DNA of 64,000 bases, taken from assembly GCF_044647545.1 (NCBI RefSeq), contig NZ_CP172818.1; one strand, 5' to 3'. This document shows positions 1 through 60,218 of this stretch, piece by piece. The notes under the pieces were generated by a model. The model worked only from the letters and a program-made list of their open reading frames with translations, had not been told where the DNA came from and searched no databases. The stretch comes from Escherichia coli (GTDB taxonomy: Bacteria; Pseudomonadota; Gammaproteobacteria; Enterobacterales; Enterobacteriaceae). How positions within the stretch are numbered: the first letter of the stretch is position 1; each line of letters opens with the position of its first letter. Both the position numbers and the translations under genes were made by a program.

Positions 1-449
<449 letters not shown>

Positions 450-454
450 CTACC

Positions 455-736
<282 letters not shown>

Positions 737-749
737 TTATCCTCTAAAA

Positions 750-3145
<2,396 letters not shown>

Positions 3146-3165
3146 TCAATCGCTCAATGACCTGA

Positions 3166-3648
<483 letters not shown>

Positions 3649-3654
3649 CCGCGC

Positions 3655-3660
3655 ATTATA
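3655..3660 (-). promoter_or_regulatory. Candidate -10 hexamer of the S10 operon promoter
   Basis: Minus strand reads TATAAT followed by a GC-rich discriminator (gcgcggg); no recognisable -35 lies upstream, where the sequence is an anomalous GC-rich tract. Confidence 0.45.
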
Positions 3661-3848
3661 CTGGGGGGGCGGGCCGCGCCGCGCGGGGGCGCTTGTTCGC
3701 CCTCTCTGCACGGCTGGTGTCCGGCAGTTCGGCCCGTCTCTGGTCGGTTTTTCTGGGTGAAAGGTGGCGGCCGCGCGATTTACGCGTGCCCGCCCCCCCC
3801 CCCTTACTCTGGTCAGGTCTTTTGTTCTATCATGGGAGTTTGGGCTAA

Positions 3849-4170
3849 TCGATTCCCCTGATCGGTTTAGCCGATGCGTTATGGGGGGCGATTATTGGTT
3901 ACGGCACATTCGCTGTCATTTACTGGGGGTATCGCATTCTGCGTCATAAAGAAGGATTAGGCTATGGTGATGTGAAGTTTCTCGCCGCCCCCTTGGTGCC
4001 TGGCATACATCCTATCGACTGGTTTTCCTTGCTGCCTTCATTGCTTGCCGAGCCGTAGTTCATTGGTCTGCTCATGAGAGGAAAAGAGTCATTAAAAAAT
4101 CTCCCGCTGCCGTTGTGGGAGCATCTTCTGCGCGAACTGACGGGTTTCGTTGTAGGCTGGGATAGTTATG
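3849..4170 (+). pseudogene. gspO: Decayed 3' remnant of a prepilin peptidase (GspO/PilD family) gene; no start codon, frameshifted
   Basis: Open frame 3849..4058 translates ...LADALWGAIIGYGTFAVIYWGYRILRHKEGLGYGDVKFLAA, containing the conserved GxGDVKxLAA motif; the expected following LGAW is encoded 2 nt out of frame after a C5 run at 3987..3991. Confidence 0.55.
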
Positions 4171-4181
4171 CTGGCAGGCCG

Positions 4182-4658
4182 TTAATCTTTAACTTTTATT
4201 TGTGATTGCAGGTAATTTTGTAGACCGATTTTACCGATGAGATCCAGCTCAGTTTCGAGCCAGTCAATATGACCTTCTTCATCGGCAAGGATCTCGATCA
4301 TCATATCACGGCTAACATAGTCATGAACGCTGTCGGCATACGCGATAGCCTCACGGAGATCCTTAGCGCCTTCCAGTTCTAATCGCAGGTCGGATTGCAG
4401 CATCTCCTCGACATCTTCACCAATCCCCAGTTTGCCTAAATCCTGTAAGTTGGGGATTCCTTCTAAAAACAAAATACGCTCGATATATTTATCAGCGTGT
4501 TTCATCTCATCGATAGATTCATGGTATTCGACGTCATTGAGACGCATCAGGCCCCAGTTTTTAAACATCCGGGCATGGAGAAAATACTGATTGATTGCGA
4601 CAAGCTCATTTCCCAATAGTTTATTGAGATAATTTATGATTTTAACATCACCTTTCAT
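4182..4658 (-). CDS. bfr: Bacterioferritin
   Basis: ORF contains [37 protein letters not shown]...; start set at the internal Met for a 158-aa product. Confidence 0.9.
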
Positions 4659-4729
4659 TTTTAGTCCCTCCGCTTCCACTATTAGAGCGTAGATGGGGCT
4701 AGCGGGATGTCAAAAAATAAGCGTGGGCT

Positions 4730-4924
4730 TCAGGCAATCTCTTTAAATTCTGGCATCTGCATCAACTCGTCCTGCATCACTTCGCGCGCGGCGCGAATGC
4801 ACTTACCGCATTGATTTCCCACAGGAATAAACTTACGCAATTGTTGGAAAGATTGCGGATGAAACTGACGTACTGCCTGGCGAATTTTTTTGTCACTTAC
4901 ACCATTACACAAACAAACGTACAT
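4730..4924 (-). CDS. bfd: Bacterioferritin-associated ferredoxin
   Basis: 64 aa ORF MYVCLCNGVSDKKIRQAVRQ... with Cys pattern of a 2Fe-2S BFD-like domain. Confidence 0.9.
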   Translation of the reverse strand: MYVCLCNGVSDKKIRQAVRQFHPQSFQQLRKFIPVGNQCGKCIRAAREVMQDELMQMPEFKEIA

Positions 4925-5034
4925 GATTGCTCCCGTTCAAATTCTGCGCAAAGTGTAAATGAGAATGGTTATGATTACAATAGCACAATTTTATTTGCGC
5001 CATAGTTCAGCGAGGAACGACAAAACGGGCAAAA

Positions 5035-5052
5035 AGGGCGCCGAAGCGCCCT
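5035..5052 (-). terminator. Rho-independent terminator at the end of the str operon (after tufA)
   Basis: GC hairpin agggcgccgaagcgccct; on the minus strand it is followed by a T-run, 30-45 nt downstream of the tufA stop. Confidence 0.7.
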
Positions 5053-5080
5053 TTTCAATTCAAAACTAATTAACGAGTAA

Positions 5081-6322
<1,242 letters not shown>

Positions 6323-34554: not shown

Positions 34555-34619
34555 GTCTCTGACAGAAATTGGCTGATGCTGATTTATTGCCTGCGCCCTC
34601 GGGTTTCCGGGGTCCAGAA

Positions 34620-35705
34620 TTAAACGTCGGCAATACTCTCGCGCAAAATCCGCAATACCGTCTCTTCACCGCTGCGATTTGGGTTAATACGAATCGCGTA
34701 ATGTTCGAGTTGCGGATTCGCCTGGCGAAACGTTCCGGAAAGTCGATAAAAAAGTGGCGGAATTTCATATTTCGACTCCGCGCCCACCGGATACGGCAAC
34801 GCGCCGCGTTTCTGCGCCTCCTCCAGCACCCTGGCGGCAATCGGCTGATGAAACTCGACAATCAACACCTTCGACTGTGCATTGGCAATGACGGCGCTTT
34901 TCACTTCCGGAACTGCACCACCGTTGAGCAAGGCCAGCAACCGCTCAGATACCCCCGCCTGCACCGCGTGCATCACTGGCGCAAACACCAGCCCACGCAA
35001 GACTTCCAGCGCCTGAGCGCCCTGAATCTGGCTGCCGCCGGAATAGAGCGTGGCGCGAATACGGTTAATAACATCAGCATCGCCTACCACCGCGCCAACA
35101 CCCTCTGGCCCAAATAGCTTGAAGCAGGAAAATGTCGAGACATTCGCCCCGCATTCACAGCCAATGCTCGCCACCTTCATCACCGCATAGTTGTCATCGG
35201 TTAAGACTGGAACCCCTGCCGCGCACAACGTTGCCAGCACATCTGCCAGTACATAGCTGTCCTGCGGCTGCTGGCGCGTATGCTGCACCAGCGCCGCATC
35301 CGGTTGTTGCTCGTCGACGACCTGCTTAAGTGCCGACAGGTCATTGAAATTAGCAGTAATAAGCGTCAGCCCCATCTGCTCAATAATGACCTGAGTCGTC
35401 GGGTAAACCGGCGCGTCATGCACCAGAAGACGCTGCCCCGGTTTGAGCAAAGCCGCCAACGCCGCACGGATCGCGCCAGTACCCGCGCCCTGTACCAGCG
35501 CCGCAGCCTGTGCGTGAAACGCGTCAGCCAGCACCTGTTCCACACGCTGGGTAATGCGCGGTTGATTCAGTCCCGGCGTTAATCCCAAATCACCGCAGGT
35601 AAGAAATTCGCTACCAGGAAAATGGCGACAAATGCTATCCACCAGCGCAAACTGCTTTTGCTGCGCCTCAATAATCGTCAGGCTTTGCAGAGGAAACGTC
35701 TTCAT
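34620..35705 (-). CDS. yhfS: PLP-dependent enzyme YhfS (uncharacterised)
   Basis: 361 aa ORF; last gene of the yhfZ-yhfS same-strand block. Confidence 0.8.
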   Translation of the reverse strand: MKTFPLQSLTIIEAQQKQFALVDSICRHFPGSEFLTCGDLGLTPGLNQPRITQRVEQVLADAFHAQAAALVQGAGTGAIRAALAALLKPGQRLLVHDAPVYPTTQVIIEQMGLTLITANFNDLSALKQVVDEQQPDAALVQHTRQQPQDSYVLADVLATLCAAGVPVLTDDNYAVMKVASIGCECGANVSTFSCFKLFGPEGVGAVVGDADVINRIRATLYSGGSQIQGAQALEVLRGLVFAPVMHAVQAGVSERLLALLNGGAVPEVKSAVIANAQSKVLIVEFHQPIAARVLEEAQKRGALPYPVGAESKYEIPPLFYRLSGTFRQANPQLEHYAIRINPNRSGEETVLRILRESIADV

Positions 35706-35716
35706 AGGTGCCTTCC

Positions 35717-37021
35717 TTAAGCCGGAACGAACAGGCCAAGCCAGTAAAGAACATTCAGCAGAATACCGGTGATCATTACTGCCACGACCGGTGCCGCCAT
35801 TTTCTGTACCGGACGGCCCAGGGATTCGTTGAGGAAGTAAATGGCAACTGCGATAGAGAATCCGGTATAACCCGCCATTTTAATTGCTGCGAAAATCGAA
35901 CCGACCAGCAACGCCACTTCCATCAGCATATTCATGGCGTTACGGATGTTATCCGACGCATTACGCACCGACGGGTAGCGCCCCAGCCATTTGCCGATCG
36001 AACGAAGCAGCAAGACTTCCGCCGAAATAACCACTGCGCCTAATACCGCTGCAACCATCGGATTCGGCGAGAGATAGCCCACCGCATAAACAAAGGTAAA
36101 GCCCGCAACTGCATATACGCCGGTGGCTAACGCGGTGGTGGCAATCAACGGCACAAAACCCAGTCCGCGCATAAATTCCGCCAGAGCTGCCTGGTTGATT
36201 AGTGTTTGCGATTGTTCCGGCGTTACGCCTGCGGAGTACGCTTTCTCCAGAGTGAAGATCGACACTTCACTACCGGCGAAAATCTTCATGCTGGCAACGG
36301 CGGCAATCAATGCTCCCACGATGGCGATATACGGTAAGTTTTTGATAATCCGTGACGTGCGTTCTTCAAACACCGAAAGCCCGCTGGCATCAATGTCATT
36401 TTCATCACGATGACGCAGGTCGTGAGTTATCGCGATCCCCAGCAGCATCACCATACCAATAAAGATTTCGATGGATTCAGGGTTAAGATGTGGGAAATAG
36501 TGCACGACGACCACACGGGTCATCAGTACCACCACGGCGGCGATCAGACTTTGCTTCCAGCCAAACTGGTAGAAAATCGCCACCAGCGGGAAGAGTGCAA
36601 AAGCTGAAACCACCGGCGAGCTTAATTCCCCGAGGCTACCTAATACATCCACCGGTAGCGCGGTCAGCAGCTGGTTTACTGGCAACAGACAGGTGAGGAT
36701 CAACACGCCCCAGATAGCGCCAAGACCAAACGCCATCAGGCTGTTTATCGCCAGTACGCCGAGGATATCGGTAGGAAGAAAGAGTAACCATGCGTTGAGC
36801 AGCCCGGTTTTCAGGGTAAAAGAGATCCCCACCGAGGCCACAAAACCAATGCTCAGACCAAAAGCGATACTCCCCGCCTCGCGACGGTTCATATAGCCTT
36901 CAATCAGTTGTGGCAGGATCGGGCGGATACCGTCATGAAAAACGGCCGCCGAGCGATGCGCCAGAAGCGATGTCATACCCGTCAGGCACGCCACCACGAT
37001 AATCTGAATATACAGATCCAT
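35717..37021 (-). CDS. yhfT: Multi-pass membrane protein YhfT (putative transporter)
   Basis: 434 aa ORF, strongly hydrophobic throughout. Confidence 0.8.
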   Translation of the reverse strand: MDLYIQIIVVACLTGMTSLLAHRSAAVFHDGIRPILPQLIEGYMNRREAGSIAFGLSIGFVASVGISFTLKTGLLNAWLLFLPTDILGVLAINSLMAFGLGAIWGVLILTCLLPVNQLLTALPVDVLGSLGELSSPVVSAFALFPLVAIFYQFGWKQSLIAAVVVLMTRVVVVHYFPHLNPESIEIFIGMVMLLGIAITHDLRHRDENDIDASGLSVFEERTSRIIKNLPYIAIVGALIAAVASMKIFAGSEVSIFTLEKAYSAGVTPEQSQTLINQAALAEFMRGLGFVPLIATTALATGVYAVAGFTFVYAVGYLSPNPMVAAVLGAVVISAEVLLLRSIGKWLGRYPSVRNASDNIRNAMNMLMEVALLVGSIFAAIKMAGYTGFSIAVAIYFLNESLGRPVQKMAAPVVAVMITGILLNVLYWLGLFVPA

Positions 37022-37032
37022 AGTCGTGCCTT

Positions 37033-37386
37033 TTATTTCAGATGGTTAATCAGCATCGGAATCGCGTGTTCAACGTGCTCAACGGAAAGGCCAAACGCCA
37101 CTTTTCCTTCAGCGATCATTTTGGCGATATGTTCGTCTTTCGCTTTAATGCCCGGTTTGGCAATGGTGCAACTTTTGTTATAGCCAATCACCGCGATGGC
37201 AATCGACAATGCCGCGCCCGCACCGGTATTACACGCACCGATGTAGTAATCCAGTTGCCCGGATTTCACTTTCATTGCCGCTTCCATGTCGTTGTGAATG
37301 AAAACTTCGAAACAGCCAGGAGCCGTCGCTTCAATGGTTTTTTTAATCTGCTCACGCTGTAAGCCTGCAACACCAATCTTTTTCAT
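37033..37386 (-). CDS. yhfU: Small uncharacterised protein YhfU
   Basis: ORF ...MKKIGVAGLQREQIKKTIEATAPGCFEVFIHNDMEAAMK...; start placed at the internal Met (117 aa). Confidence 0.75.
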   Translation of the reverse strand: MKKIGVAGLQREQIKKTIEATAPGCFEVFIHNDMEAAMKVKSGQLDYYIGACNTGAGAALSIAIAVIGYNKSCTIAKPGIKAKDEHIAKMIAEGKVAFGLSVEHVEHAIPMLINHLK

Positions 37387-37396
37387 GAGTCTGTCC

Positions 37397-38275
37397 TTAT
37401 TGGAAAAATTGAGAGGGATTTTCACGTAACATCACATCCACATCGGCCTGACTGAATCCTGACTGGCGCAATTGCGGAATAAAGGTGGTCAATAAAAAGT
37501 CATAGCCATAACCACCGTTGGCTTTTAAATGAGAGCGCCGCGTAATATCCATCGACAGCATGACGCGGTTCAGCAACCCACGGTCACGTAGCGCATGGAG
37601 CATCGCAATCCGCTTTTCGTCCGGGTAGTAACTGTTCTTGCCGATGGTGTCGAACTGCACATACGCGCCGAGATCGATCATCTTCAAAATGTTGTCGAGA
37701 TTGTCTTTCAGATCGCAGTGGCCGACGGTGACGCGCGAAAGATCAACTCCGTGGGCTTGCAACAGAGCCAGTTGCTCCAGCCCCATGGTGCTAAAAGAGG
37801 TATGCGTGGAGATCGGACGTCCGGTCTGGTTATGTGCCAGCGCGGCGGCAATAAACACCTTCTCTTCCAGCGGCGTAATCTTCCCTTCGCTGGAGCCGAT
37901 CTCCGCGATGATCCCGGCTTTCAGCTCCGTGCCATCGATACCCTGCTCAATTTCATCGACCATCTCCTGCGCCAGTTCCTGCACGCTGCGGGTCGCCACA
38001 TGTTCCGGGAAAAACGCGTCCTGGTAATAACCGGTACAGGCCACCACGTTGATCCCGGTTTCGCGCATTACATCGAGCATAAATTGTGCATTGCGCCCCA
38101 TGTAACGGTTGGTCATCTCAATCACATTACGCACACCCAGTGCCATCAGGTCGTTCATCTCCTGGCAAATGAACGCATACTGATCAAGGCGGCAGTCCAC
38201 GTTGTTTTTAAAGCCGGAGAGATCAATATGCAGATGCTCATGGGCCAGGGTGTAGCCCGTTGAATCAAAACTCAT
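37397..38275 (-). CDS. php: Phosphotriesterase-homology protein (amidohydrolase superfamily, binuclear metal centre)
   Basis: 292 aa [25 protein letters not shown]... with HxH motif. Confidence 0.85.
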
Positions 38276-39498
38276 AGGGTGTCTCCTGCAAACCGGAGGG
38301 AGGAAAGAAAAGAGCGACCATTTTGTGGCGGTGGCGCACGGAAAAATTCACACACGGTAGCGCCCACATCGGAGAGCGTGGTGCGAACACCAAGCTGCGT
38401 GGCAGCCAGGCCTTGCTGATAAACCAGCACCGGCACGACTTCGCGGGTATGGTGGCTGTGACCGATTGTCGGATCGTTACCGTGATCCGCCATCACGACC
38501 AGGCAATCATCTGGCTGCATCGTCTCAACCAGGAGAGCAAGATTACGGTCAACGACCTGCAAACGTTCGGCATAACGTGCGACGTCTTCTGCGTGACCAG
38601 CGAGGTCGGTTTCCTGAATGTTGGTGCAAATAAACGCTGTCTGATGGGTGATAAATTCGTCGAGGGTGATATCCATAATCCGCTGGCTATCCACCAGGTT
38701 TTGCCAGCTCACGCCATAAGGATTGTTGACGATATCTGCCACCTTACCCACCAGCACGGTTGGCACGCCTGCTTCATACAGTTTTTGTGGCACCTGCACT
38801 TTTTCATCGACGCCATAGCCCATATGCACGACCTGGAAACCGTTGTCATAAGCGCCAGAACGCGGCGCGTTGATGCCAATAAAGCGCCCTTCTTTGCTTT
38901 CTGCGGCATCGAGAATGCGTTGACTGTCGGTTAACAGGCCGCCAAATGTAATGACCCGCCCGACCGGTACCTGCTCACGCACGATACGACCAATTTTGAT
39001 TGCGTCGTCAAAAGAGACCACAGAGAGATTGGCGGTGATGTTATAGACCTGGCCTAAATCCGCCTCGAGATTATCGCCAATCGCAACCGCCTGATTGACC
39101 CACAGAAATTGCAACTCTTCGCCACGGCGCTCCACCTGCCAAGCGGCGGAAACTAATGCCTGCTCAACACGGTCAATCACATCGCGAAAAGGCATCCGCA
39201 GCGGCGGTAACGGGCGCGTGCCTAAAATTTCCTGATGCCCCATAAAGGTATCGCCACCTTCATGTTGCAGCTCTGCCACACCCCAGGTTGCGGAGTCTGA
39301 CGGCTGCATATCACCTGGCGCATAACCCAATGCGTTGATTAGCCCCAACTTCTCCAGCGTTGGTAGCTGCAAATGCGGCAGCTGGCTCAGGATGTGACCA
39401 CAAGTATTCGCCCCGGCATCCTGTGGACGCACCAGCGTGACATCTTTCATTGCGCCTACGCCAAAGCTATCAATCACTAACACCACAAATCGCGCCAT
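38272..39498 (-). CDS. yhfW: Phosphopentomutase-like metalloenzyme YhfW
   Basis: 408 aa ORF with [16 protein letters not shown] metal-binding motif typical of DeoB-like mutases; 4-nt overlap with php. Confidence 0.8.
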
Positions 39499-40661
39499 TA
39501 CGCCCCCAGAGAGTTTCCAAGACTGTCATAACGACCGACGATTTCCGGTTCGCCACGGTGAATACCGGACAGCAACACCACATCGCTACGGGTGACAAAA
39601 ATCTGCGTGCGAAAACAGAGCACTACTGCACTGCTTACCGGAAACTCGCCTGCCAGCGGCAGGGTGTAGTCGATACTGCTGTCATCCACAGTTTTGAGAT
39701 TGGTTTCAGTAATCTTTTGATTTTCTGGCGTAAACACCAGCGCATGTTGCGCGTGACCACGACGGTAGTAACCGCCGCCGTAGCAGTAGCTGTCGCCACG
39801 GAAATGATGGGAGATTTCACTTAACCAGAGCATCGCGATACGTTCAGGCTGATCGCCCTGCTGGTTTGCCGGAATAGTGCCCGTCAGCGCATGACCGGGT
39901 TCGGCATGAGTCACACCGTATTCCGCCAGCAATGGCAGCGAAGTGCAGCTGGTCGCTGAAGGCGCGTTCAGTTGCTCAATCGCAATACCAGATTTCGCCA
40001 GTTGATCCCGTGCTTGTACCAGCGTGTGAAGATTCGGTGTCGGCAAAACTTTCCCGACAGCTTCATCCCAAAGCAGGCAAGGGAAATGGGTAAGTCCAGC
40101 TAAATGCAGCCCCGGCAGTTTCTTAATTTCAGCAACCACCTCGTGCAGCGAATGCTGTACAAAACCGCTCTCCTGCCCCGGATAAAGAAAATCATCGTCG
40201 CTATAAACTTTGAGCAGCACAGACTGCACACGTCCGGCCTTCACCGCTGCCGCAGAAACTTCCCGCGCTTTGTCGAGAGTAAACACGGTGATGACGTCGG
40301 TTCCCTGTGCAACGGCGTCAACCACCTGATGACAAGGGATTTGTACCAAATGCCCCTGATGCGCCACCGGCAAACCAGCGCGGCGCATGACTCGCGCCTC
40401 TTTGTAATCCACCGCCACAATGCCGCTGTAGCCTAATGCCAGCAGTTTTTCCGCCAGCCACGGATTACGACCAAACTGCTTGGTCATCAGATACAGTTCA
40501 ATGCCGTAAAGCCGCGCCGTCTCAATCAGCCGCTTACCGTTTTCCAGTATCTGATCCACGTCGATCACCCAGCTGTCCGGGGCGATCTTGCCCTTTTGCC
40601 ACAAACTTAGTGCGGCGGAAATTAGCGCCGGGTTCTGGCGTTTCAATGCTTCTACAAACAT
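39498..40661 (-). CDS. yhfX: Alanine-racemase-fold PLP-dependent protein YhfX
   Basis: 387 aa ORF; 1-nt overlap with yhfW. Confidence 0.8.
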
Positions 40662-40744
40662 CTTGTTGCCTCGTTTCTGTTCCTTGAATTAAATATTCAT
40701 TTTTTTGAATATTTAGGTTGTGCGACGTGGATTTGTCGGGAGCT

Positions 40745-41107
40745 TCAAACCTCTTCGTTAGCAGCCATCCATAATCCATAAAGGTTGGCCAGCAAATAGC
40801 CTTCTTCACACGGGTTAACTTCCAGTGCAAATTCCTTCAACAACACCTGATGCAATTGCACAACGGCTTGCCAGTGGCTGGATTGCGCCAGTTCTGCCAG
40901 CAATTCGTTATCCAGCGGCTCTATTTCTTCACCGCGGCGACTGCGCATCAGTGCGCTCGCCATATGTGTCATCGCCATCGTTCCTTGCTCACTGCGCACT
41001 GGCAGATGGAACTCTGTTTCCAGTACGTTGACGACCTGCATCATGCCTTTGCAGATGTCCTTATCAATAACGCCTGCCTCGCAAAGCAGGTTGAGTCTGG
41101 TTTCCAT
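40745..41107 (-). CDS. yhfY: Small PRD-like protein YhfY
   Basis: 120 aa ORF METRLNLLCEAGVIDKDICKGMMQVVNVLETEFHL... Confidence 0.75.
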   Translation of the reverse strand: METRLNLLCEAGVIDKDICKGMMQVVNVLETEFHLPVRSEQGTMAMTHMASALMRSRRGEEIEPLDNELLAELAQSSHWQAVVQLHQVLLKEFALEVNPCEEGYLLANLYGLWMAANEEV

Positions 41108-41123
41108 TTCAGATGCCTTTCAT

Positions 41124-42029
41124 TTAATAACTGGGTTCCTGTTCCCCACTCACCACTCGTTGTTGATGGGCAAGCAGGGCCTGTTTATCAACCACTGCAC
41201 GCAGCAGTTGTTGCATTGGGTAATCATCGACTCGCGTCAGGACCACGGCTTCGGTGGCCTGTAAAAATCGCGGATCGTCTGTGAGCGGCGTCGCTTCTAA
41301 TCCCAGCATGGTCAGTTCGTTTTCCGCCACCACGTTCCAGATCACCGCATCGACATCGCCTTTAACAATGCGTTGTAAACTCTCGTGATAAGAGAGATCG
41401 ACACGTTCCACATCACTATCGCCAAAAAAGACATCGGTCATGATTTTCTGATCCGCCGAACGGTTATCCAGCCCCACGCGCTTCACGTTTGCGGACTCGC
41501 CTTTACGGCAAATCAACTGGTGCTCGCCAACGTAGGTGTGCGGCCCCAACTCCAGCGCGAGGCATAAGCCTTTTTGCGTGAGATAACTTTCCGCCGCCAG
41601 TCGGGAAACAACCGCCATGTCATACACGCCGTTAAGTAAACACTCCACGCGAATATCCGCGCCGCGCATATGCGCATAGTAAAAAGGAATACCATCAAAC
41701 TGAGCTTTCAATCCGCTCGCCAGGCCTTCGTACAAACGGGTATAGGGCAAGGGCATCGCGCACACCACATTGTTGATATCTACATGAGTCAGCAATGCTT
41801 TGTTATCCATCTCGACCAGATAACTGCCATTGCGCCCACGGCGTTCAATCCGTATCGCTCCGCTTGATTCCAGCGTTTTCAACGCGGCCTGCGTCAGGCC
41901 AACCGATGAACGGCATTCAGTTGCCAGCTCATCTATGGTTTTCAGTCGATTACCGCACTTTTCACCCAACAAATAACGGGCCAGTGTCGTGATAACGACG
42001 CCTTCTTTTTTGATAAACGTTCGACGCAT
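41124..42029 (-). CDS. yhfZ: Putative transcriptional regulator YhfZ (N-terminal wHTH plus ligand-binding-like domain)
   Basis: 301 aa ORF MRRTFIKKEGVVITTLARYLLGEKCGNRLKTIDELATECRSSVGLTQAALKTLESSGAIRIERRGRNGSYL... Confidence 0.75.
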   Translation of the reverse strand: MRRTFIKKEGVVITTLARYLLGEKCGNRLKTIDELATECRSSVGLTQAALKTLESSGAIRIERRGRNGSYLVEMDNKALLTHVDINNVVCAMPLPYTRLYEGLASGLKAQFDGIPFYYAHMRGADIRVECLLNGVYDMAVVSRLAAESYLTQKGLCLALELGPHTYVGEHQLICRKGESANVKRVGLDNRSADQKIMTDVFFGDSDVERVDLSYHESLQRIVKGDVDAVIWNVVAENELTMLGLEATPLTDDPRFLQATEAVVLTRVDDYPMQQLLRAVVDKQALLAHQQRVVSGEQEPSY

Positions 42030-42147
42030 AATATATTTTCAATAAAATGAATGTTTATATCTTCATTAAAATGAAGATAAGTGGCAACTGTGAGATGTGG
42101 AAACGGCGAGGTGCTTCACATTTTTTCGGATTATTGCAAATGAGGAT

Positions 42148-42173
42148 AAAAAAACCGGGTTTCCCCGGTTTTT
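42148..42173 (-). terminator. Rho-independent terminator of trpS
   Basis: aaaaaaccgggtttccccggttttt hairpin with flanking A and T runs, between the trpS stop and the yhfZ start. Confidence 0.7.
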
Positions 42174-42188
42174 GGCATTAATGTTAAA

Positions 42189-43193
42189 TTACGGCTTCGC
42201 CACAAAACCAATCGCTTCGTACACCGCTTTCAGCGTACGAGAAGCGTGTGCACTGGCTTTTTCCGCGCCGTCTTTCATCACCTGTTGCAGGAAGGCTTCA
42301 TCGTTGCGGAAACGGTGATAACGTTCCTGCAATTCAGTCAGCATACCGGAAACGGCATCAGCCACTTCGCCTTTGAGATGACCATACATCTTGCCTTCGA
42401 ACTGTTTTTCCAGTTCCGGGATGCTCTGGCCCGTTACCGCAGAAAGGATATCCAGCAGGTTGGAAACGCCCGCTTTGTTCTGCACATCGTAGCGAACTAC
42501 CGGCGGCTCGTCGGAGTCAGTGACCGCACGTTTGATTTTCTTCACTACCGATTTCGGATCTTCCAGCAGGCCGATAACGTTATTGCGGTTATCGTCAGAC
42601 TTGGACATCTTTTTGGTCGGCTCCAGCAGCGACATTACGCGCGCGCCGGATTTCGGAATAAACGGCTCCGGCACTTTAAAGATCTCGCCATACAGCGCGT
42701 TGAAACGCTGGGCGATATCGCGGCTCAGTTCCAGGTGCTGTTTCTGGTCTTCACCCACCGGTACCAGATTAGTTTGATACAGCAGGATGTCCGCAGCCAT
42801 CAGCACCGGATAGTCAAACAGACCAGCATTGATGTTCTCGGCATAACGCGCAGATTTATCTTTAAACTGCGTCATGCGGCTCAGTTCGCCGAAGTAGGTA
42901 TAGCAGTTCAGTGCCCAGCCTAACTGTGCATGTTCCGGCACGTGGGACTGAACAAAAATGGTGCTTTTCTCAGGATCGATACCACAAGCCAGATACAAGG
43001 CCAGCGTATCCAGCGTCGCTTTACGCAGCTTCTGTGCATCCTGGCGCACGGTGATCGCGTGTTGGTCAACGATACAGTAAATGCAATGGTAGTCATCCTG
43101 CATGTTTACCCACTGACGCAGCGCACCCATGTAGTTACCAATGGTCAATTCACCTGAGGGCTGTGCGCCACTAAAAACGATGGGCTTAGTCAT
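42189..43193 (-). CDS. trpS: Tryptophan--tRNA ligase
   Basis: 334 aa [32 protein letters not shown]... with KMSKS motif. Confidence 0.95.
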
Positions 43194-43944
43194 TTTTCGA
43201 TTCCTGATTTTCGCTATGCGGAAGCCCTAATGCGGGCAGAAGGTCATTTATAGACTGATAAATTACATCAGGCTGGCTGAGATCGATAGCCTCGCCGTAG
43301 TTATATCCGTAGGTTAAGCCAACTGATGGGCAACCTGCCGCTTTTGCTGCCTGAATATCATTGCGTGAGTCGCCAACAAACAGCATCTGTTGTGGAGCAA
43401 TTCCCATCCGCTCAGCCACCAGTAACAGCGGGTCCGGATGCGGTTTTTTGTTTTGCACATCATCACCACCAATTACCACGCTGAAGTATTTGGCGATATC
43501 TAAGGCTTCGAGCAGCGGCGCGACGAACGGCGTCGGTTTGTTGGTGACCAGACCTAGCGGCAGGCCTTTAGCCTGCAATGCGCCCAGCGTATCGGCAACG
43601 TGCGGGAACAAAAACGTCCCCTCTTCGGCAACCTCGCCATAGTAGCGATCGAACAGTTTACGCAGAATACGTACTTGTTCTTCTGCCGGAATGTCGTCAT
43701 CAACGGGCGGTTTACCCATTGTTTTACGCAGAGTCGCACGTTCCTGACGCGCCCAGGTCAATGCGCGCTCCATCAGAACATCTGCGCCGTTACCAATCCA
43801 GGTTATAACGCGTTCTTCACCTGCGACGGGCAACTCCAGCGCATACAGCGCCATATCTACTGCGGTAGCCAAGCCAGGAGCACTGTCCACCAGCGTACCG
43901 TCGAGATCAAAAGCGACGCCGCGAATATCTTCAAACTTATTCAT
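43186..43944 (-). CDS. gph: Phosphoglycolate phosphatase (HAD family)
   Basis: 252 aa [27 protein letters not shown]... Confidence 0.92.
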
Positions 43945-44614
43945 GACTTACCTTTGCCAGTTCACTGCGCATTTCATCAATGACTTTTTTGTAGTCTGGC
44001 TGGTCGAAGATTGCCGAACCAGCAACAAACATATCCGCGCCCGCCGCAGCGATTTCGCCAATGTTGTTCACCTTCACGCCACCGTCCACTTCCAGTCGAA
44101 TGTCAAAGCCAGACTCGTCGATACGACGACGTACTTCGCGCAGTTTATCCAGTGTTTGAGGAATGAAAGACTGACCGCCGAAACCAGGATTAACGGACAT
44201 CAGCAGGATCACATCCAGCTTATCCATCACGTAATCCAGATAGCTCAGCGGTGTCGCCGGGTTAAATACCAGCCCCGCTTTACAGCCATTTTCTTTAATC
44301 AGTTGCAGCGTGCGGTCAACATGCTCGGAGGCTTCTGGATGAAAGGTAATGATGCTGGCACCAGCGGCAGCGAAATCAGGCACAATGCGATCGACGGGTT
44401 TCACCATCAGATGTACGTCGATAGGGGCGGTAATGCCGTAGTTACGCAAGGATTTCAGCACCATTGGCCCAATCGTCAGATTGGGAACATAGTGGTTATC
44501 CATGACGTCAAAATGCACGACATCAGCGCCAGCTGCCAGGGCTTTTGCGGTATCTTCACCCAGGCGGGCAAAATCAGCCGACAGAATTGAGGGGGCAATC
44601 AAATACTGTTTCAT
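43937..44614 (-). CDS. rpe: Ribulose-phosphate 3-epimerase
   Basis: 225 aa [50 protein letters not shown]... Confidence 0.95.
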
Positions 44615-44631
44615 CCGCTTCTCCTTGAGAA

Positions 44632-45468
44632 TTATTTTTTCGCGGGTGAAACGACTCCTGGTTTGTACAAAGCCAGCAGTTCGTCCACCTTTTTACGTGT
44701 GCCGCCGTTGCTGCTTATACTGCGTCGAACTTTGACGACATGCAATTTTGCGCGCTGATACCACTCACGCGTTAACATCGTATCGTGATTGGAGATCAGC
44801 ACAGGAATATGGCGATCAACCAGACCTTCGGCGATCTCCGCCAGATGCGCTTGTTGTTCAAGCGTAAAACTGTTTGTGTGATACGCCGTAAAGTTGGCGG
44901 TCGCAGACAGCGGTGCATAAGGCGGATCGCAATAGACGACGGATGCATCATCTGCGCGTGCCATGCTATCGGCGTAAGACTCACAATAGAAAAAGGCATT
45001 CTGCGCTTTTTCAGCGAAGTGATACAACTCTGCTTCCGGGAAATAGGGTTTTTTGTAGCGGCCAAACGGCACGTTAAACTCACCGCGCAGATTGTAACGA
45101 CACAGGCCGTTGTAACCGTAGCGGTTCAAATATAAAAACAGTACCGCCCGACGGAACGGATCCTGGCTTTTGTTGAACTCTTCGCGGAACTGATAGTAAA
45201 CCTCGGCGCAATTTGTTTCGGGAACAAACAGCTCGCGTGCGGCCTGTACGTACTCATCAGTACGCATTTTCACAATGTTATAGAGACTGATCAGGTCGCT
45301 ATTGATATCGGCAAGGATATAACGAGAAAAGTCGGTGTTGAGAAACACCGACCCGGCACCTACAAAAGGCTCAACCAGACATTCGCCCTTGGGCAAATGC
45401 CGTTTAATATCATCAAGCAGGGGATACTTGCCCCCTGCCCACTTCAAAAAAGCGCGATTTTTCTTCAT
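44632..45468 (-). CDS. dam: DNA adenine methyltransferase (GATC)
   Basis: 278 aa [29 protein letters not shown]... with DPPY catalytic motif. Confidence 0.95.
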
Positions 45469-45574
45469 GCTGACTAACTAATTACACCTTCTCCGGCTGT
45501 GGAGAAAGCTCCGACAGCATCCAGCGCTTCAGGCAACTCCCGCGATGATAAACCATTGCGGGAGATAACCTTGA

Positions 45575-46861
45575 TTACTTCAGATCGGCCTGTACCTGAC
45601 GCAGCGGTTTCGCCCACGGGTTTTTGGCCTGGACATCGGCTGGCAATGTAGATACCGCTTTTTTCGCCTCTTCTTTCGAAGCGTACACGCCAGAAACCAG
45701 GACATACCACGGCTGACCATTACGCGTCGTTTCATAGACAACGTAGTTTTTCAGATTCTCTTTCTTCGCCCAACCGTTCAGGTTGTCGTAGTTAGAGGAA
45801 CTGCTCAGCTGCAGAGTGTAATGGCTGGACGGTGCCGATTTCAACGAACCCACATTACCTGCGGTCTTCCCTCCAGCGGCTGGTGTTGCCGTGGTTTGCG
45901 CCGGGGATGCCGTCTGTACTGGAGCCGTAGTTGCGGTCTCTTTTGGTGCTGGCGTAGAGGTCGCAGCCGGTGCCTTCGTGCTTGCCACAGGAGCAGCTGG
46001 TTCAGTACGCTTCGGCGTCTGTGCTACCGGCTTCGGCTCCGTTTTCACGGTTGCTTGCGGTTTTTTCGGTTCAATCACCGCCTGCTGGCGAGCTGGACGC
46101 GTAGTGGCCGGACGTTCAGCGGTTTGCGTTTTCGCCGTGTCACGCGATGCATTGCCATTGCGAACAGGCGCGACCGTCGCGGGTTCAGTCGGCAACGTGG
46201 AATTGACCGCCACATTATTCAACTGTTGCTGATTTTGTGGCTGGGTCAGCGCATTGTTCAGGTCACCCTGCACTTCAACACGTTGTTGACCATCCGTTGC
46301 CGCCGGGGTTTGCCCTTGAGTCGGCGTAGAAGAGATCGGCGGCAGAGAAACATCCTGCTGAGTATTTTCCGCAGACGTGGTTCCCGGCGCTGGCTGCACA
46401 CCATTCGCCTGATCGGTCGCATTGCCTGCAAGATCAATACTCTTCTCGCCAGACGCGGTTTGATCGCTGGAAGAGGTCGAGGGGGCTTTTAGCGCAGAAC
46501 CGATACCGATGATCAACAGTAGGAGAACCAGAATGCCGACCCCCATCATCATATACTGACGAGAAGCGGGTTTACTGGCTGCTTTTTTGCGCTTACGCGG
46601 ACGACGCTCTACGCGCTCTTCATCCACGATTTCATCTTCGGATTCGTCAATTTCTTCTTCGATTTCCGGCTCATCATTGCGCTCTTTTTGCGCACGAGTC
46701 GGACGGCGATCGTCAGTGTCATCAAGTTCAATATCATCAAAATTGATCTGCGGTTCGCCACGTTCAGTACGCTCAGAACGTTCAGAAGATTGACGAGAAC
46801 GACCAGTACGACGATCGCTGGGATCGGGTTTCAGCTCGTCTTCTGGTTTGAATTCATCCAT
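45575..46861 (-). CDS. damX: Cell-division protein DamX (SPOR domain, low-complexity periplasmic linker)
   Basis: 428 aa [30 protein letters not shown]...; Gln/Pro/Thr/Ala-rich middle; C-terminal SPOR-like domain. Confidence 0.9.
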
Positions 46862-46952
46862 TTAACACCCCACTAAAAGGTTAATGCTTACCACGTTGCA
46901 ATTAACCTGAAGCTAATAGACCGCTTGATAAGCGGCCTGACCTTTCTTGTTG

Positions 46953-48041
46953 TTACGCTGATTGACAATCGGCAATGGCGTTAAGAACAAGCTCGTGCGA
47001 AACGCCGCTGCGAACTTCACTCTTACCAATTGCCAACGGAAGAATTAAGCGCATCTCTCCCGCAAGGACTTTCTTGTCACGCAGCATATGCGGTAAATAC
47101 GCCTGCGCAGACATTTCGCGCGGCCCATTGACCGGTAACCCAGCCCGCGTGAGCAGGGTTATAATACGCTGCGTTTCGGCAGAACTAAACTGCCCGAGAC
47201 GTTCCGACGTCCGCGCCGCCATCACCATACCCGCAGCAACCGCTTCACCGTGTAACCAATTGCCATACCCCATTTCAGCTTCAATGGCATGACCAAAGGT
47301 GTGTCCCAGATTCAGTAAAGCACGTAACCCGGTTTCGCGCTCGTCGGCGGCGACAACTTCTGCCTTCAGTTCACAACAACGGCGAATACAGTACGCCATT
47401 GCCGGACCGTCCAGACGCAACAACGCATCCAGATTCTCTTCCAGCCAGTTAAAAAACGCACCGTCAAGAATAATGCCGTATTTGATGACTTCTGCCAGCC
47501 CCGACGCTAACTCACGCGGGGGAAGCGTTTTCAGACAGTCGAGATCCACCACCACTGAAGCAGGCTGGTAGAACGCGCCAATCATGTTTTTACCGAGGGG
47601 ATGGTTGACCGCAGTTTTGCCGCCAACGGAGGAATCGACCTGCGACAGTAACGTCGTCGGGACTTGAATGAAACGTACACCGCGCTGATAACTCGCCGCC
47701 GCAAAGCCGGTCAGATCGCCCACTACGCCGCCGCCAAGCGCCACCAGCGTAGTATCGCGACCATGCGGCTTTTGTAACAACGCCGTAAAGACGGTATCGA
47801 GTACAGCCAGGCTTTTATACTGCTCGCCGTCAGGGAGGATAACGCTATCGACGTTAACACCCGCCTGTTCAAGTACGCCGCGGACCTTATCGAGATACAG
47901 AGGAGCCAGGGTTTCGTTGGTAACCAACATGACCTGCTCGCCCGATTTCAGCGGTAAGAATGAAGCTGGTTCATTAAACAAACCAGATGCGATGGTAATT
48001 GGGTAACTACGTTCCCCGAGAGTAACGACAATCCTCTCCAT
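46953..48041 (-). CDS. aroB: 3-dehydroquinate synthase
   Basis: 362 aa [34 protein letters not shown]... Confidence 0.95.
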
Positions 48042-48097
48042 AACGCGACATCCACCTTAATTACTGTACCCGCAGACGAGTGTATATAAAGCCAGAA

Positions 48098-48619
48098 TTA
48101 GTTGCTTTCCAGCATGTGAATAATCTGGTTTGCGACCACTTTAGCGCTTTGATCATCAGTACGAATGGTCACGTCGGCAATCTCTTCATACAGCGGATTG
48201 CGTTCATTGGCCAACGCTTCCAGAACTTCACGCGGCGGTGTTTCAACGTGCAGCAACGGGCGTTTTTTATCACGCTGCGTGCGTGCAAGTTGCTTTTCGA
48301 TGGTCGTTTCAAGATAAACGACAACGCCACGTGCGGAAAGACGGTTACGCGTTTCGCGGGATTTCACAGAGCCGCCGCCAGTAGCCAGCACAATACCCTG
48401 TTTCTCGGTCAACTCATTGATGACCTTTTCTTCGCGATCGCGGAAGCCTTCTTCGCCTTCTAAATCGAAAACCCAGCCCACATCAGCTCCGGTTCGTTTC
48501 TCAATCTCTTGATCGGAATCGTAAAATTCCATATTGAGTTGTTGAGCTAACTGGCGCCCAATAGTGCTTTTTCCGGCACCCATAGGCCCAACCAGAAAGA
48601 TATTGCGTTTCTCTGCCAT
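48098..48619 (-). CDS. aroK: Shikimate kinase 1
   Basis: ORF contains [36 protein letters not shown]...; start set at this Met (173 aa). Confidence 0.92.
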
Positions 48620-49019
48620 TTTTTCGGTACTACTAAGACTATTCGTTAATGATAAACCCGCTTCGCTCAGAGAGCGCCGCAGGACATGAACTGAAACCTC
48701 ATAAGATATTGCGAGAGTCAGACTGAAAATTATCTCAATACTCCAGCGGGTTTGGCAACTGAATAAATCACCCATCCCTCTGCATATCTGGTCGCTGCAA
48801 GCGCGCTGCCTTGCTACCACCGCTCTGGCGATAAATCACCGGGTAAGATTAGCGTAAAAAAGACAGCAAAATGCCGCCTGAATGATAAATCATCATCATG
48901 GAACGCAGGCAGCGAAGAGCACCAACTCTCAAATCGGTACTCCTTGTATGCTAAATACCTGCGCGCGTCAAATAGATGAAACACGTTCAGCGTAAAAACA
49001 TTACCGCTTTTACGGCTGT

Positions 49020-50258
49020 TTACTCACTGGAAACCAGTCGTGGCGTGATAAACACCACTAACTCGCGTCGTTCATCTTCTTTTCCGTCATGACGAAATAA
49101 TTGCCCGAACCAGGGAATGTCGCCAAGCAACGGTACGCTATCCTGACCCGATTTATTTTTACGGGTAAAAATGCCGCCCAGCGCCAACGTTTCTCCGCTT
49201 TTGACCTCGACCTGCGTTTCGATCTCCTGCTTATCAATCGCCAGCACTTCGCCATCTGCCTGCTGTAGCACCTGCCCCGGAACGTTCTGGCTGATGTGTA
49301 ATTTCAGCCGGATGCGACCTTTTTGTAACACCGTGGGCGTGACCTCCATCCCCAGGACGGCCTCTTTAAATTCCACCGACGTCGCGCCACTTTCCCCGCT
49401 GGAAACCTGATATGGAATTTCGCTCCCCTGTTTAATGCTGGCAGGCTGAAGATGTGAGGCCAGCAGACGCGGACTGGCGATAATATCCAGCTGCTGTTTT
49501 TGTTCGAGCGCGGAAAGCTCAAGATCCAGTAAACGTCCGTTGATGCGTCCAATGTTAAAACCGACATGCGTTGTCGCCGTCGCTACGGAGAGGTCGCTGC
49601 CAAGCGTGGTGACTTGCCCAACGCCACCAGCTTGTTGCGCATCAGCCAACGTCCATTTCACGCCTAACTCACGCAAACTTTTTTCATTAATGGTGACAAT
49701 ATGCGCCGAGAGCTCAACCTGCCCGACCGGCAGATCCATTTGCGCTACCCACTGTTCAAGCGTGCTTAACGCCGTTTTGTTATCTCGCAGCAAAAGGCGA
49801 TTGGTGCGTTTATCGACGGTCATACTCCCTTTGGCACTCAGTAGCTTCTCCCCAGCTTTCGCCAGCTCTCCGGCGTCGGCGTATTGCAGAGTAATATTGC
49901 GATTTTCCAGCGGCAGATTTGCCTGCGCCCGCGCCTGCTCCGCTTCCTGACGGGCGATATTGTCATTCTGCCAGGCAATGGAATGCACTGAGAGAATGTT
50001 GCCCTCCTGGCGCGTTATCAGTCCGGCGCTTTTCACTACAGTTTGTAGTGCCTGCTTCCAGGGAACATCTGTTAGATGTAACGACACCGTACCGCTGACG
50101 TCTGGCGACACCACCAGGTTCAACTTCTCCTGTTCAGCCAGCGCCTGCAACACCTGAGCTACCGGAACGTCATCCACCATCAGTGTCACTTTTTGCGGCT
50201 TTGCCGCCTGTACGCCGGGTATCAGCATCAACAGTAGTGCGGCTATCCATTGCTTCAT
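49020..50258 (-). CDS. hofQ: Secretin-family outer-membrane protein HofQ (competence / type IV pilus-like DNA uptake)
   Basis: 412 aa ORF with signal peptide and C-terminal secretin domain (...VVFITPRLV). Confidence 0.88.
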   Translation of the reverse strand: MKQWIAALLLMLIPGVQAAKPQKVTLMVDDVPVAQVLQALAEQEKLNLVVSPDVSGTVSLHLTDVPWKQALQTVVKSAGLITRQEGNILSVHSIAWQNDNIARQEAEQARAQANLPLENRNITLQYADAGELAKAGEKLLSAKGSMTVDKRTNRLLLRDNKTALSTLEQWVAQMDLPVGQVELSAHIVTINEKSLRELGVKWTLADAQQAGGVGQVTTLGSDLSVATATTHVGFNIGRINGRLLDLELSALEQKQQLDIIASPRLLASHLQPASIKQGSEIPYQVSSGESGATSVEFKEAVLGMEVTPTVLQKGRIRLKLHISQNVPGQVLQQADGEVLAIDKQEIETQVEVKSGETLALGGIFTRKNKSGQDSVPLLGDIPWFGQLFRHDGKEDERRELVVFITPRLVSSE

Positions 50259-50574
50259 TTGTATCTCCTTGCCGTTGCCACAACCATTGTGGCGGTTCGC
50301 AGTTTGTCCCGGTACCCAGCGTTAGTACGTCTGGCGTCAGCTGTAAAATTGTCCAGCCGTTTTCCAGCACATCGTTTTGCTGCACCCGTCGCCATTTCTT
50401 TTGCCCGTCTTTTATTACACCGATGATGCGCTCGCCTCGCCCTACTATCCCCTGATAGCGCCACTGGCTAAGTTCGCTAATCCGGCATAGATCTTCCGGC
50501 GGTTTAAAAGGGTCACGCATACCGGTTAAAAGGCACAATGCAATACCTGCCAACAACCAGCGTTTACCCCTCAT
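50170..50574 (-). CDS. hofP: DNA utilisation protein HofP (pilus-assembly PilP-like lipoprotein)
   Basis: ORF ...MRGKRWLLAGIALCLLTGMRDPF...; start at internal Met; overlaps hofQ start. Confidence 0.75.
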   Translation of the reverse strand: MRGKRWLLAGIALCLLTGMRDPFKPPEDLCRISELSQWRYQGIVGRGERIIGVIKDGQKKWRRVQQNDVLENGWTILQLTPDVLTLGTGTNCEPPQWLWQRQGDTNEAMDSRTTVDADTRRTGGKAAKSDTDGG

Positions 50575-51004
50575 GCGGCGTCTCCAGTTGTAGCGTGAAC
50601 AAAAGATCATCACCTTCCACGCTTAACGAAAAACGGCTCACGCTGACGTTGCGCTCTGCCAGCCGTGTAAATGCCGACGGCACTGCTTCCCACAGCGTTT
50701 TCAACGCCAACTCACCTCCCTGCGCGGATGGATGCCAGGAAACCAGTTGCGCGCCGGGCAACTGAAAATCCAGTGGCGAAAAGGGCAGCGTTTTTTCTTC
50801 GCTGAAGGGAGTGGTGTCTACCAGGCGATACAGTGCGGCCCACTGCTGGTGATGACTCGCCCGTAGTCGAATTAATGCGTCGCTCTCTTCCTGGTGTGTC
50901 GATGACAGAAAAATGAGCGTAACTAACATCATCAACCAGAATGCCCAGCAAAGCTGGCGGAGGCGGGGTGATGCGGCGAACCACCAGTCAAAGAGCATGT
51001 CCAT
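50564..51004 (-). CDS. hofO: DNA utilisation protein HofO (PilO-like)
   Basis: 146 aa ORF with N-terminal TM helix; synteny. Confidence 0.75.
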   Translation of the reverse strand: MDMLFDWWFAASPRLRQLCWAFWLMMLVTLIFLSSTHQEESDALIRLRASHHQQWAALYRLVDTTPFSEEKTLPFSPLDFQLPGAQLVSWHPSAQGGELALKTLWEAVPSAFTRLAERNVSVSRFSLSVEGDDLLFTLQLETPHEG

Positions 51005-51527
51005 CGCTAACCTTCCTTGTTAACTGATACTCAAATTGCCAGCGTCCCTGCGCATCCTGCTGCGTGCCCCCCCGCTGATTGAGATGAAAAAAAGCATCCT
51101 GACAGAGTGACGTTTCCAGCGCGTTTAACGCGGTAATGCTTGTTGTCAGCCCCTTGATCTCCAGCGTTCCCTGCTGCCAGCTTATCGTTGTCAGCCAGGC
51201 GTGCTCGGGTAAAAGCGCCGCCAGTGCTTCCAGCGCAGATTGCCAGTCGCGGGTAAATTGTCGCTGGCGCTGCCTTTGCAAACGCTGTTCGCGTAACTGC
51301 TGTTGCTCCAGCAAACGTGGTTTCGTTATCTGTAAGCTGTGGGCAAGTTGTTGTTCCGCCTGAAGCAAAACGGCGTTTACGCGTGCTTCGGCGTTGCTTG
51401 TCAGACGCAGTATTAGCGTAATCCCGACGGCCAGCAGCAGAGGCGCAACGAACATCAGCAACCAGAAACGCAGAAAAGCGGTCCGGCGTTGCTGTCGCCA
51501 GGGCAAAAAATTAATTGGCGGGTTCAT
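50988..51527 (-). CDS. hofN: DNA utilisation protein HofN (PilN-like)
   Basis: 179 aa ORF with N-terminal TM helix and coiled-coil; synteny. Confidence 0.75.
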   Translation of the reverse strand: MNPPINFLPWRQQRRTAFLRFWLLMFVAPLLLAVGITLILRLTSNAEARVNAVLLQAEQQLAHSLQITKPRLLEQQQLREQRLQRQRQRQFTRDWQSALEALAALLPEHAWLTTISWQQGTLEIKGLTTSITALNALETSLCQDAFFHLNQRGGTQQDAQGRWQFEYQLTRKVSDGHAL

Positions 51528-52306
51528 CAGTTCGCCTTCCCTAGCGCCAGCCCCAGCGCGATGGCAAAGTCTCCACCTGGCGGCGGTAGCGGCGGCTGAC
51601 GAACAGAAACGGCCTCCCAGGGATCAAATCCGCCTTCGCCACATAGCGCGACGCTTTCGGGATCAACGGATAACGCTGCCGCCAGCTCCTTCGCGCTAGT
51701 CATCCCCACCGCCAGTTTGCGCCCCCAGCGATAGCGCGTCGCCCACAGCCACTGTTCGTTATCACGCCAGGCCAGACATTGCTGATGAGAAGGTAAAAAA
51801 GGCAGGAATCGCTGTAATGCACTGGCATCCGGGGTGATCGCGCTAACATGAACACGCAACCTTTCTGCCAGAGTAAGCAGCGTTGCCAGCTCTTTGCTTT
51901 GCGCGGCAGTCACGTTATAGGCGGGACTGAGTGAGTCTTCGCTGTAATCGAAGCGCAGGGAGTCCGGATCCATATCCAGTTCACGGGCCATCGTCCCGGA
52001 CAGCCAGGCCGTTTGCTCCCGCTCACCAAGGGACATCGACGGGCGCGGAAATGACCGCTGTAATGTGCGACTGGCGGGAAACGCCAACATAATGTGATGA
52101 CGCTGCGGCAGTTCGCGGCTCCACGGTAACAACGTGTTAGCCAGCCGCTGCGCATCAACAATCCGCCCATCTTTGATAATGTCATTCTCCAGCGGCAACC
52201 GCCACCAGCGTTGCAAAAAGCATTCTTTTGCGCCCCGCACGATCGCAACCGCTACCGCTTCTTGCTGTTGTAAATGCAAACCAATTTGCCAGATCTTAAA
52301 TGCCAT
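51527..52306 (-). CDS. hofM: DNA utilisation protein HofM (PilM-like actin-fold ATPase)
   Basis: ORF ...MAFKIWQIGLHLQQQEAVAVAIV...; start at internal Met (259 aa); divergent from mrcA. Confidence 0.8.
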   Translation of the reverse strand: MAFKIWQIGLHLQQQEAVAVAIVRGAKECFLQRWWRLPLENDIIKDGRIVDAQRLANTLLPWSRELPQRHHIMLAFPASRTLQRSFPRPSMSLGEREQTAWLSGTMARELDMDPDSLRFDYSEDSLSPAYNVTAAQSKELATLLTLAERLRVHVSAITPDASALQRFLPFLPSHQQCLAWRDNEQWLWATRYRWGRKLAVGMTSAKELAAALSVDPESVALCGEGGFDPWEAVSVRQPPLPPPGGDFAIALGLALGKAN

Positions 52307-52401
52307 TGTGATGATCTCCTTATCACCCGTCACTCTGACGGGTATATCAATGCGTCTGGCTTGCCTTTATACTACCGCGCGTTTGTTTATAAACTGCCCA
52401 A

Positions 52402-54978: not shown

Positions 54979-54984
54979 TTAAAA

Positions 54985-60210: not shown

Positions 60211-60218
60211 TGAGTATG

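Follow-up and report, generated by a model that had tools for sequence, protein, structure and literature searches.

Between rpsJ and bfr, this Escherichia coli sequence carries the broken end of a prepilin peptidase gene. The locus raises the question of which gene the fragment derives from and how it came to be broken. In E. coli K-12, gspB, gspA and gspC-O lie between rpsJ and bfr, and chiA lies between bfd and tufA. The initial annotation had described the gsp arrangement correctly (the K-12 cluster spans 12,978 bp) and read the fragment as a decaying gspO tail, left behind when the rest of the cluster was lost. We compared the window, the whole 64,000-nucleotide stretch of DNA analysed here, with complete E. 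coli genomes, protein families and wider sequence collections.

A broken prepilin peptidase gene between rpsJ and bfr

The genes around the locus are all encoded on the minus strand:

3166-3477, minus strand: rpsJ, the end gene of the S10 operon in the window
4182-4658, minus strand: bfr
4730-4924, minus strand: bfd
from 5081, minus strand: tufA

The rpsJ-bfr spacer measures 704 bp. Inspection of its open reading frames revealed no intact gene, in agreement with the initial annotation. Mechanically called ORFs of 103, 79 and 61 residues in the GC-rich part of the spacer have no homologues in the protein collections searched. The frame from 3849 reads SIPLIGLADALWGAIIGYGTFAVIYWGYRILRHKEGLGYGDVKFLAAPLVPG...AEP and ends at a TAG stop codon (4056-4058). 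A prepilin-peptidase motif had been recognised in this frame, and the motif is genuine: the fragment encoded by 3849-4055 matches the Pfam family Peptidase_A24 (PF01478) with an E-value of 8.7e-7 over model positions 40-78 of 104, and GxGD is present. The frame also lacks a start codon, as had been noted, with no ATG, GTG or TTG before the GTG at 3972. The sequence LGAWHT is picked up in the +2 frame, 3' of a run of five cytosines. The reported offset of 2 nt after this run is correct, and the run itself occupies 3988-3992 instead of 3987-3991.

The family assignment relies on Pfam, since an NCBIfam search returned no family for the window fragment, for the intact 155-residue protein described below or for K-12 GspO. 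A tblastn search of the rpsJ-bfr interval with the intact protein aligns its residues 35-155 with an E-value of 1e-45, which places the homology far beyond chance. The homology begins at 3801 (codon 35, PLLWSGLLFY) and extends to the original stop codon at 4183-4185, a wider range than the 3849-4170 first reported. The remnant is therefore delimited as 3801-4185 on the plus strand, a startless A24 prepilin-peptidase gene with several frameshifts. We refer to it as hopD.

A stand-alone hopD gene occupies the interval in many E. coli genomes

The window belongs to an ST648-like lineage. Its sequence and that of E. coli FDAARGOS_497 agree fully (100%) over 1-3661, 34614-49072 and 48072-64000. A dozen other complete genomes score equally well, and CP008697 ("strain ST648") is among the equal best matches. 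These genomes are referred to as clone-mates.

In FDAARGOS_497, the gsp genes and chiA are absent, and the rpsJ-bfr interval contains a 155-residue ORF (WP_022646190.1) whose last 4 nt are shared with the end of bfr. A megablast search of 5,426 complete E. coli genomes showed that in 2,247 of them rpsJ and bfr are 842 bp apart, with this gene as the sole occupant of the interval. The protein is named "prepilin peptidase" or "leader peptidase HopD" at source. The exact 155-residue protein occurs on at least 1000 contigs in a collection of 15 billion proteins. Its 90% protein cluster also includes members from E. marmotae, Shigella dysenteriae and unclassified Escherichia, and 14 of the 15 cluster members listed are 155 residues long. 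The hopD locus and its small peptidase gene are already known and routinely annotated.

The intact clone-mate protein contains a complete A24 domain, matching PF01478 at model positions 2-103 with an E-value of 4.4e-22, and consists of this domain alone. Its alignment with GspO covers residues 80-215 of the latter, whose first ~75 residues have no counterpart in it. The N-terminal domain that characterises the bifunctional PilD/GspO-type class is accordingly missing even from the intact allele. Four natural hopD alleles, each from a different lineage, are separated by 3-31 substitutions and no indels over the 842 bp, and all encode 155 residues.

The window copy shares its position, strand, 4-nt overlap with bfr and PF01478 membership with stand-alone HopD. 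The locus displays the same rpsJ - hopD - bfr - bfd - tufA synteny, and window segments 3801-3832, 3863-3987, 4062-4099 and 4141-4167 are identical to the 155-residue allele except for a substitution at 3803. The window copy differs in that it lacks codons 1-34, contains two in-frame stop codons and several frameshifts, and lies in a shorter interval (704 bp, compared with 842 bp for the intact allele).

Damage to hopD in the window

Alignment to the intact allele divides the remnant into undamaged blocks and scrambled patches; the longest undamaged block is also supported by PF01478.

3801-3832, plus strand: codons 35-44 of hopD (PLLWSGLLFY), matching the clone-mates but for the substitution at 3803
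3833-3862, plus strand: scrambled patch 1, with eight small insertions (net +15 nt) that create an in-frame TAA at 3846-3848
3863-3987, plus strand: undamaged block of 125 nt, 100% identical, codons 51-92, including GLGYGDVKFLAA with GxGD and the second catalytic Asp
3988-4061, plus strand: scrambled patch 2 (net -6 nt), with TAG 4056-4058 in the main frame
4062-4099, plus strand: undamaged block (IGLLMRGKESLKN)
4100-4140, plus strand: scrambled patches 3 and 4, with +3 nt (TCT) followed by six 1-base insertions (+6 nt)
4141-4185, plus strand: last hopD block (GFVVGWDS...), which, like the intact allele, has 4 nt in common with the 3' end of bfr

Patch 2 is composed of a CC insertion, a net deletion of 9 nt around 4011-4019, a +1/-1 pair at 4038/4043 and an added base at 4061. 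The CC insertion extends three cytosines of the intact allele to five and gives rise to the run at 3988-3992. The +6 nt patch spans 4115-4140. In the last block, an A inserted at 4168 (+1) shifts the frame, and the original TAA stop codon (4183-4185) is no longer in register. Summed over the hopD part, 30 bases are inserted, 15 are deleted and 3 are substituted, and the indels number more than 20. The alignment thus bears out the frameshifted state that the initial annotation had described.

An active A24 enzyme contains two catalytic Asp residues, one close to where the domain begins and one in GxGD. The second is encoded in the window (GYGDVK, ~3963-3980). The first corresponds to D22 in the intact protein and to D94 in GspO, and falls within the replaced codons 1-34. 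The reading frame is interrupted by stop codons at 3846-3848 and 4056-4058 and by frameshifts at 3988, 4061, 4168 and other positions. Because the first catalytic Asp is missing and the frame is untranslatable, hopD as written is unable to make a peptidase and is non-functional.

Among the 5,426 E. coli genomes, the hopD allele of the window is a singleton. The variant was likewise missing from metagenomes scanned with a 32-mer, and exact protein queries with five ORFs returned nothing. Describing the gene as decaying is doubtful: nearly all changes are indels, they are unique to the window, and the backbone is otherwise 100% identical to that of the clone-mates.

A GC-rich block replaces the S10 -35 region and the 5' end of hopD

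Upstream of the first hopD block, the spacer is composed of two parts. The boundary between them was found by three-way alignment of the window, FDAARGOS_497 and K-12.

3478-3661, minus strand: leader of S10 (rpsJ) and the -10 element TATAAT (reverse complement, 3655-3660)
3662-3803, no strand assigned: orphan GC-rich block of 142 bp, beginning with G7 and ending with C11, ~70-73% G+C, delimited by alignment

The segment 3478-3661 is the last stretch identical in the three sequences, and all three diverge from one another after 3661. The divergence point falls between the -35 and -10 elements of the S10 promoter, immediately 5' of TATAAT. A promoter consensus scan missed the S10 promoter in both the window and the reference, and the promoter was placed by alignment and by the length of the S10 leader, presumably ~172 nt, which agrees with the position of the -10 element. 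The -35 element is TTGCGT in both FDAARGOS_497 and K-12 despite their differing spacers. At the corresponding position of the window (3662-3690, minus strand), the sequence is GC-rich filler.

The block takes the place of ~295 bp. Lost with them are the S10 -35 box, the region of the hopD promoter and hopD codons 1-34, which include the start codon and the first Asp. Loss of the -35 box ahead of eleven essential ribosomal-protein genes would be hard to reconcile with a healthy isolate. Some transcription of S10 is conceivable, as a perfect TATAAT is retained.

A perfect 12-bp inverted repeat is present at the ends of the block (3663-3674, GGGGGGGCGGGC; 3788-3799, GCCCGCCCCCCC). The block forms a hairpin of -88.8 kcal/mol and folds better than its shuffles (z -3.5). 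Sensitive blastn gave no match to it in the 5,426 E. coli genomes or in PLSDB. Exact scans with a 27-mer of the block (TTCGCCCTCTCTGCACGGCTGGTGTCC) likewise gave none in GTDB representatives, JGI metagenomes and IMG/VR. A protein search with its 69-residue ORF was empty, an Rfam scan of 3400-5200 returned nothing at E <= 1, and no second copy was found within the window. When the block was aligned locally with the DNA it replaces and with the K-12 flanks, z-scores reached at most ~3.7, not above the best shuffle. Judged by copies and by curated families, 3662-3803 corresponds to no known repeat, mobile element or structured RNA. A NotI site (GCGGCCGC) and a MluI site (ACGCGT) lie close together at 3766-3786, which may be due to chance at 70% G+C.

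Changes at other junctions with the K-12 haplotype

Between 3800 and 34612, the window differs from FDAARGOS_497 by 5 mismatches and 38 gap openings. These are concentrated in three patches, located in the hopD interval, the bfd-tufA spacer and the yhfL-yhfS spacer. Alignment delimits the two patches outside hopD and a separate single-base change as follows:

4662, minus strand: deletion of one base relative to the clone-mates, 4 nt upstream of the bfr start codon
5015-5030, no strand assigned: patch (b) in the bfd-tufA spacer, with a net loss of 26 nt and scattered small differences, at the site of chiA in K-12
34587-34613, no strand assigned: patch (c) in the yhfL-yhfS spacer, with scattered 1-nt deletions and a loss of ~37 nt, at the site of frlABCDR in K-12

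The loss in patch (c) takes out the T-tract of a terminator hairpin. The window's versions of patches (b) and (c) are found in none of the 5,426 complete E. coli genomes and, like that of the hopD patch, have no match in JGI metagenomes, GTDB representatives, IMG/VR or PLSDB. The coding regions of bfr and bfd, situated between patches, are untouched. Beyond the patches, the window differs from FDAARGOS_497 by the deletion at 4662 and a SNP at 28844. This SNP (C in the window, T in FDAARGOS_497) is the sole substitution beyond the patches and lies ~100 bp upstream of nirB.

The patches coincide with three of the four structural junctions between the window and the K-12 haplotype (gsp/hopD, chiA and frl), and none is located elsewhere. 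At the fourth junction (42171), the yhfZ-trpS spacer of K-12 includes 130 bp that are absent from this lineage; this site is clean, and the window equals FDAARGOS_497.

Origin of the scrambled sequence

The homology of hopD, its damage, its uniqueness and the location of its changes are matters of observation. As to their cause, we infer that the scrambling of hopD and the two spacer patches are most likely of non-biological origin. They would have been introduced by assembly, gap closing, polishing, consensus calling or another non-biological edit at sites where haplotypes vary structurally. The real isolate would most likely possess a normal 842-bp interval with an intact hopD. The indel-heavy spectrum is the opposite of natural hopD variation, which disfavours evolutionary damage. 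The location of the patches at structural junctions suggests a process that is sensitive to population-level structural polymorphism and is not mutational. A block bounded by poly-G and poly-C, such as that at 3662-3803, is a possible trace of low-quality read tails or gap filling.

Two deposited assemblies may provide a precedent for such an artefact, one with a scrambled hopD and the other with many frameshift flags. In E. coli HH97 (NZ_CP116409.1), RefSeq annotates hopD (PL329_RS03325) as a pseudogene, "frameshifted; incomplete; missing N-terminus". The 5' part of the gene is replaced by a noisy tandem duplication of ~75 bp, and the bfd-tufA spacer has a 32-bp deletion where patch (b) lies in the window. 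Like the window copy, HH97 hopD has lost its N-terminal part, contains small changes in overlapping sub-regions and is confined to one record. It differs in its B1-like backbone and in the other changes, and it retains the S10 -35 element and lacks the GC-rich block. A sister assembly, HH45 (NZ_CP116411.1), carries frameshift flags on rpsE, rplF, rpsS, tuf, fkpA, slyD and other genes, many of them essential, and the HH97/HH45 series is evidently error-prone. A literature search on HH97 found nothing relevant.

Several features do not fit an artefact easily. Technical error should reach coding DNA too, and the changes are restricted to non-coding or dispensable DNA, as would be expected under purifying selection. 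Four of the five hopD patches have a net length change divisible by three (+15, -6, +3 and +6), which would not be expected of simple read noise. The damage of HH97 at overlapping sub-regions could reflect a real, locus-specific instability. The idea that HH97 marks a natural hot spot was considered and is weakened, as its hopD allele is a singleton and its sister HH45 is full of frameshift flags.

The same features would be accommodated by a genuine and very recent destruction of hopD through a complex event in one isolate, the main alternative explanation, which we consider possible but unlikely. A small GC-rich palindromic element would have inserted into or replaced the 5' region, followed by error-prone repair, with related events in two nearby spacers. 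The perfect 12-bp terminal inverted repeats and the fold z-score of -3.5 are consistent with such an element. Since hopD is dispensable, its damage would be tolerated, and RefSeq does annotate hopD pseudogenes, that of HH97 among them. The density and direction of the changes argue against this course of events. More than 20 indels and 3 substitutions are packed into ~380 bp, whereas the remaining ~63 kb contain a single SNP, and insertions outnumber deletions in hopD. Bacterial pseudogenes are usually deletion-biased. Further, the event would have removed the -35 box of an essential promoter, the GC-rich block is without relatives in any collection searched and is not a mobile or repeat element seen before, and the resulting allele is found once among 5,426 genomes.

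It is improbable, in our assessment, that the sequence is faithful as it stands, the 142-bp block being a real, new palindromic insertion or scar and the scrambling the product of an unknown, localised mutational process. If so, the block would have replaced the S10 -35 region and the 5' end of hopD, and indel-only, mostly in-frame changes would have occurred at three junctions.

Under the preferred reading, in which the changes are non-biological, surveys of pseudogenes or of the pan-genome should not score the damage in the window as gene decay. Indel-only patches at junctions of structural polymorphism, together with poly-G/poly-C filler, may offer a quality flag for other records.

Relation to K-12 gspO and the age of the haplotype

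The fragment had been taken for what is left of a K-12-type gsp cluster, which would have lost ~12 kb by deletion and kept the decaying 3' end of gspO. This history has some points in its favour. K-12 GspO (HofD/HopD, b3335), which belongs to the cryptic gsp-alpha type II secretion cluster, is an A24 protein with GxGD, of the same Pfam family as the remnant, and its gene lies in the same position and orientation, abutting the 3' end of bfr. The absence of gsp in non-K-12 strains has been described as a "gspO-rpsJ deletion", with the cluster lacking in group B1 (PMC3032704), and pan-genome work treats the gsp cluster as an accessory trait (PMC11390585).

The sequences themselves point elsewhere. 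GspO is a protein of 225 residues, with ~75 extra residues at the N terminus, encoded by the last gene of a 13-kb cluster. The intact 155-residue protein is 41% identical to it. An orthologue of gspO would be expected to be nearly identical, at ~98% of the DNA as in genes shared among E. coli, and the DNA flanking the locus in the window is indeed 95.6-99.9% identical to K-12, mostly ~98%. In the megablast search of the interval against the 5,426 complete genomes, K-12-type genomes match bases 1-184 only (the S10 leader, 100%), and no match to K-12 DNA is found in the hopD part. The undamaged blocks of the remnant are, by comparison, 100% identical to the hopD-type gene of the clone-mates. Judged by these comparisons, the gene remaining at the locus is no truncated form of K-12 gspO, and loss of a gsp cluster as its history is highly improbable. 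Of the initial interpretation, the A24 family and the broken state stand and the descent from a gsp cluster does not; the alignment to K-12 and other E. coli genomes that it had proposed as a check confirmed homology to an A24 gene and gave no support to an origin from K-12 gspO.

The scrambled copy does resemble K-12 gspO more closely than the intact allele does, with an alignment score of 51 compared with 31, a value reached by 2 of 500 controls with random inserts. A consensus or blend with K-12 gspO sequence was examined as a source and rejected: the copy is statistically more gspO-like, though the inserted bases are not those of K-12.

Patchy ectopic conversion of hopD by another A24 gene (gspO, pppA or a hofD-like gene) would explain this likeness and the alternation of short changed tracts with identical blocks, and is the least credible of the explanations weighed here, since an exact donor would be expected and each E. 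coli genome contains one match, the hopD locus itself, and since the GC-rich block and the two spacer patches would be left unexplained. The greater likeness to gspO, combined with the lack of a donor in E. coli genomes, argues for a blend and not for a conversion tract.

The difference between the two haplotypes extends beyond the peptidase gene. In E. coli, the rpsJ-tufA segment (window 3662-5028) exists as two deeply diverged haplotypes, which share 77% identity in their bfr-bfd DNA, compared with ~98% in the flanks. The window Bfr and Bfd proteins share 93.7% and 92.2% identity with those of Silvania hatchlandensis, and 88.0% and 87.5% with those of K-12. Silvania also displays the order rpsJ - A24 peptidase (55% identity) - bfr - bfd - tufA. 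Because it relied on exact-match peptide patterns, a scan of GTDB representatives for the locus returned two loci only. The closer resemblance of bfr-bfd to another genus with the same hopD synteny is a further point against simple loss of gsp. By these comparisons, the hopD-bfr-bfd haplotype is old and has its synteny in common with the genus Silvania.

The presence or absence of gsp-alpha at rpsJ-bfr is a documented polymorphism of E. coli, and the broken gene in the window is of little biological consequence. The gsp-free genomes possess a distinct and old hopD-bfr-bfd haplotype at this site, so that "loss of gsp" is an oversimplified description. The divergence suggests that the rpsJ-tufA segment was exchanged by replacement of the whole block, and not by a simple deletion of gsp and chiA.
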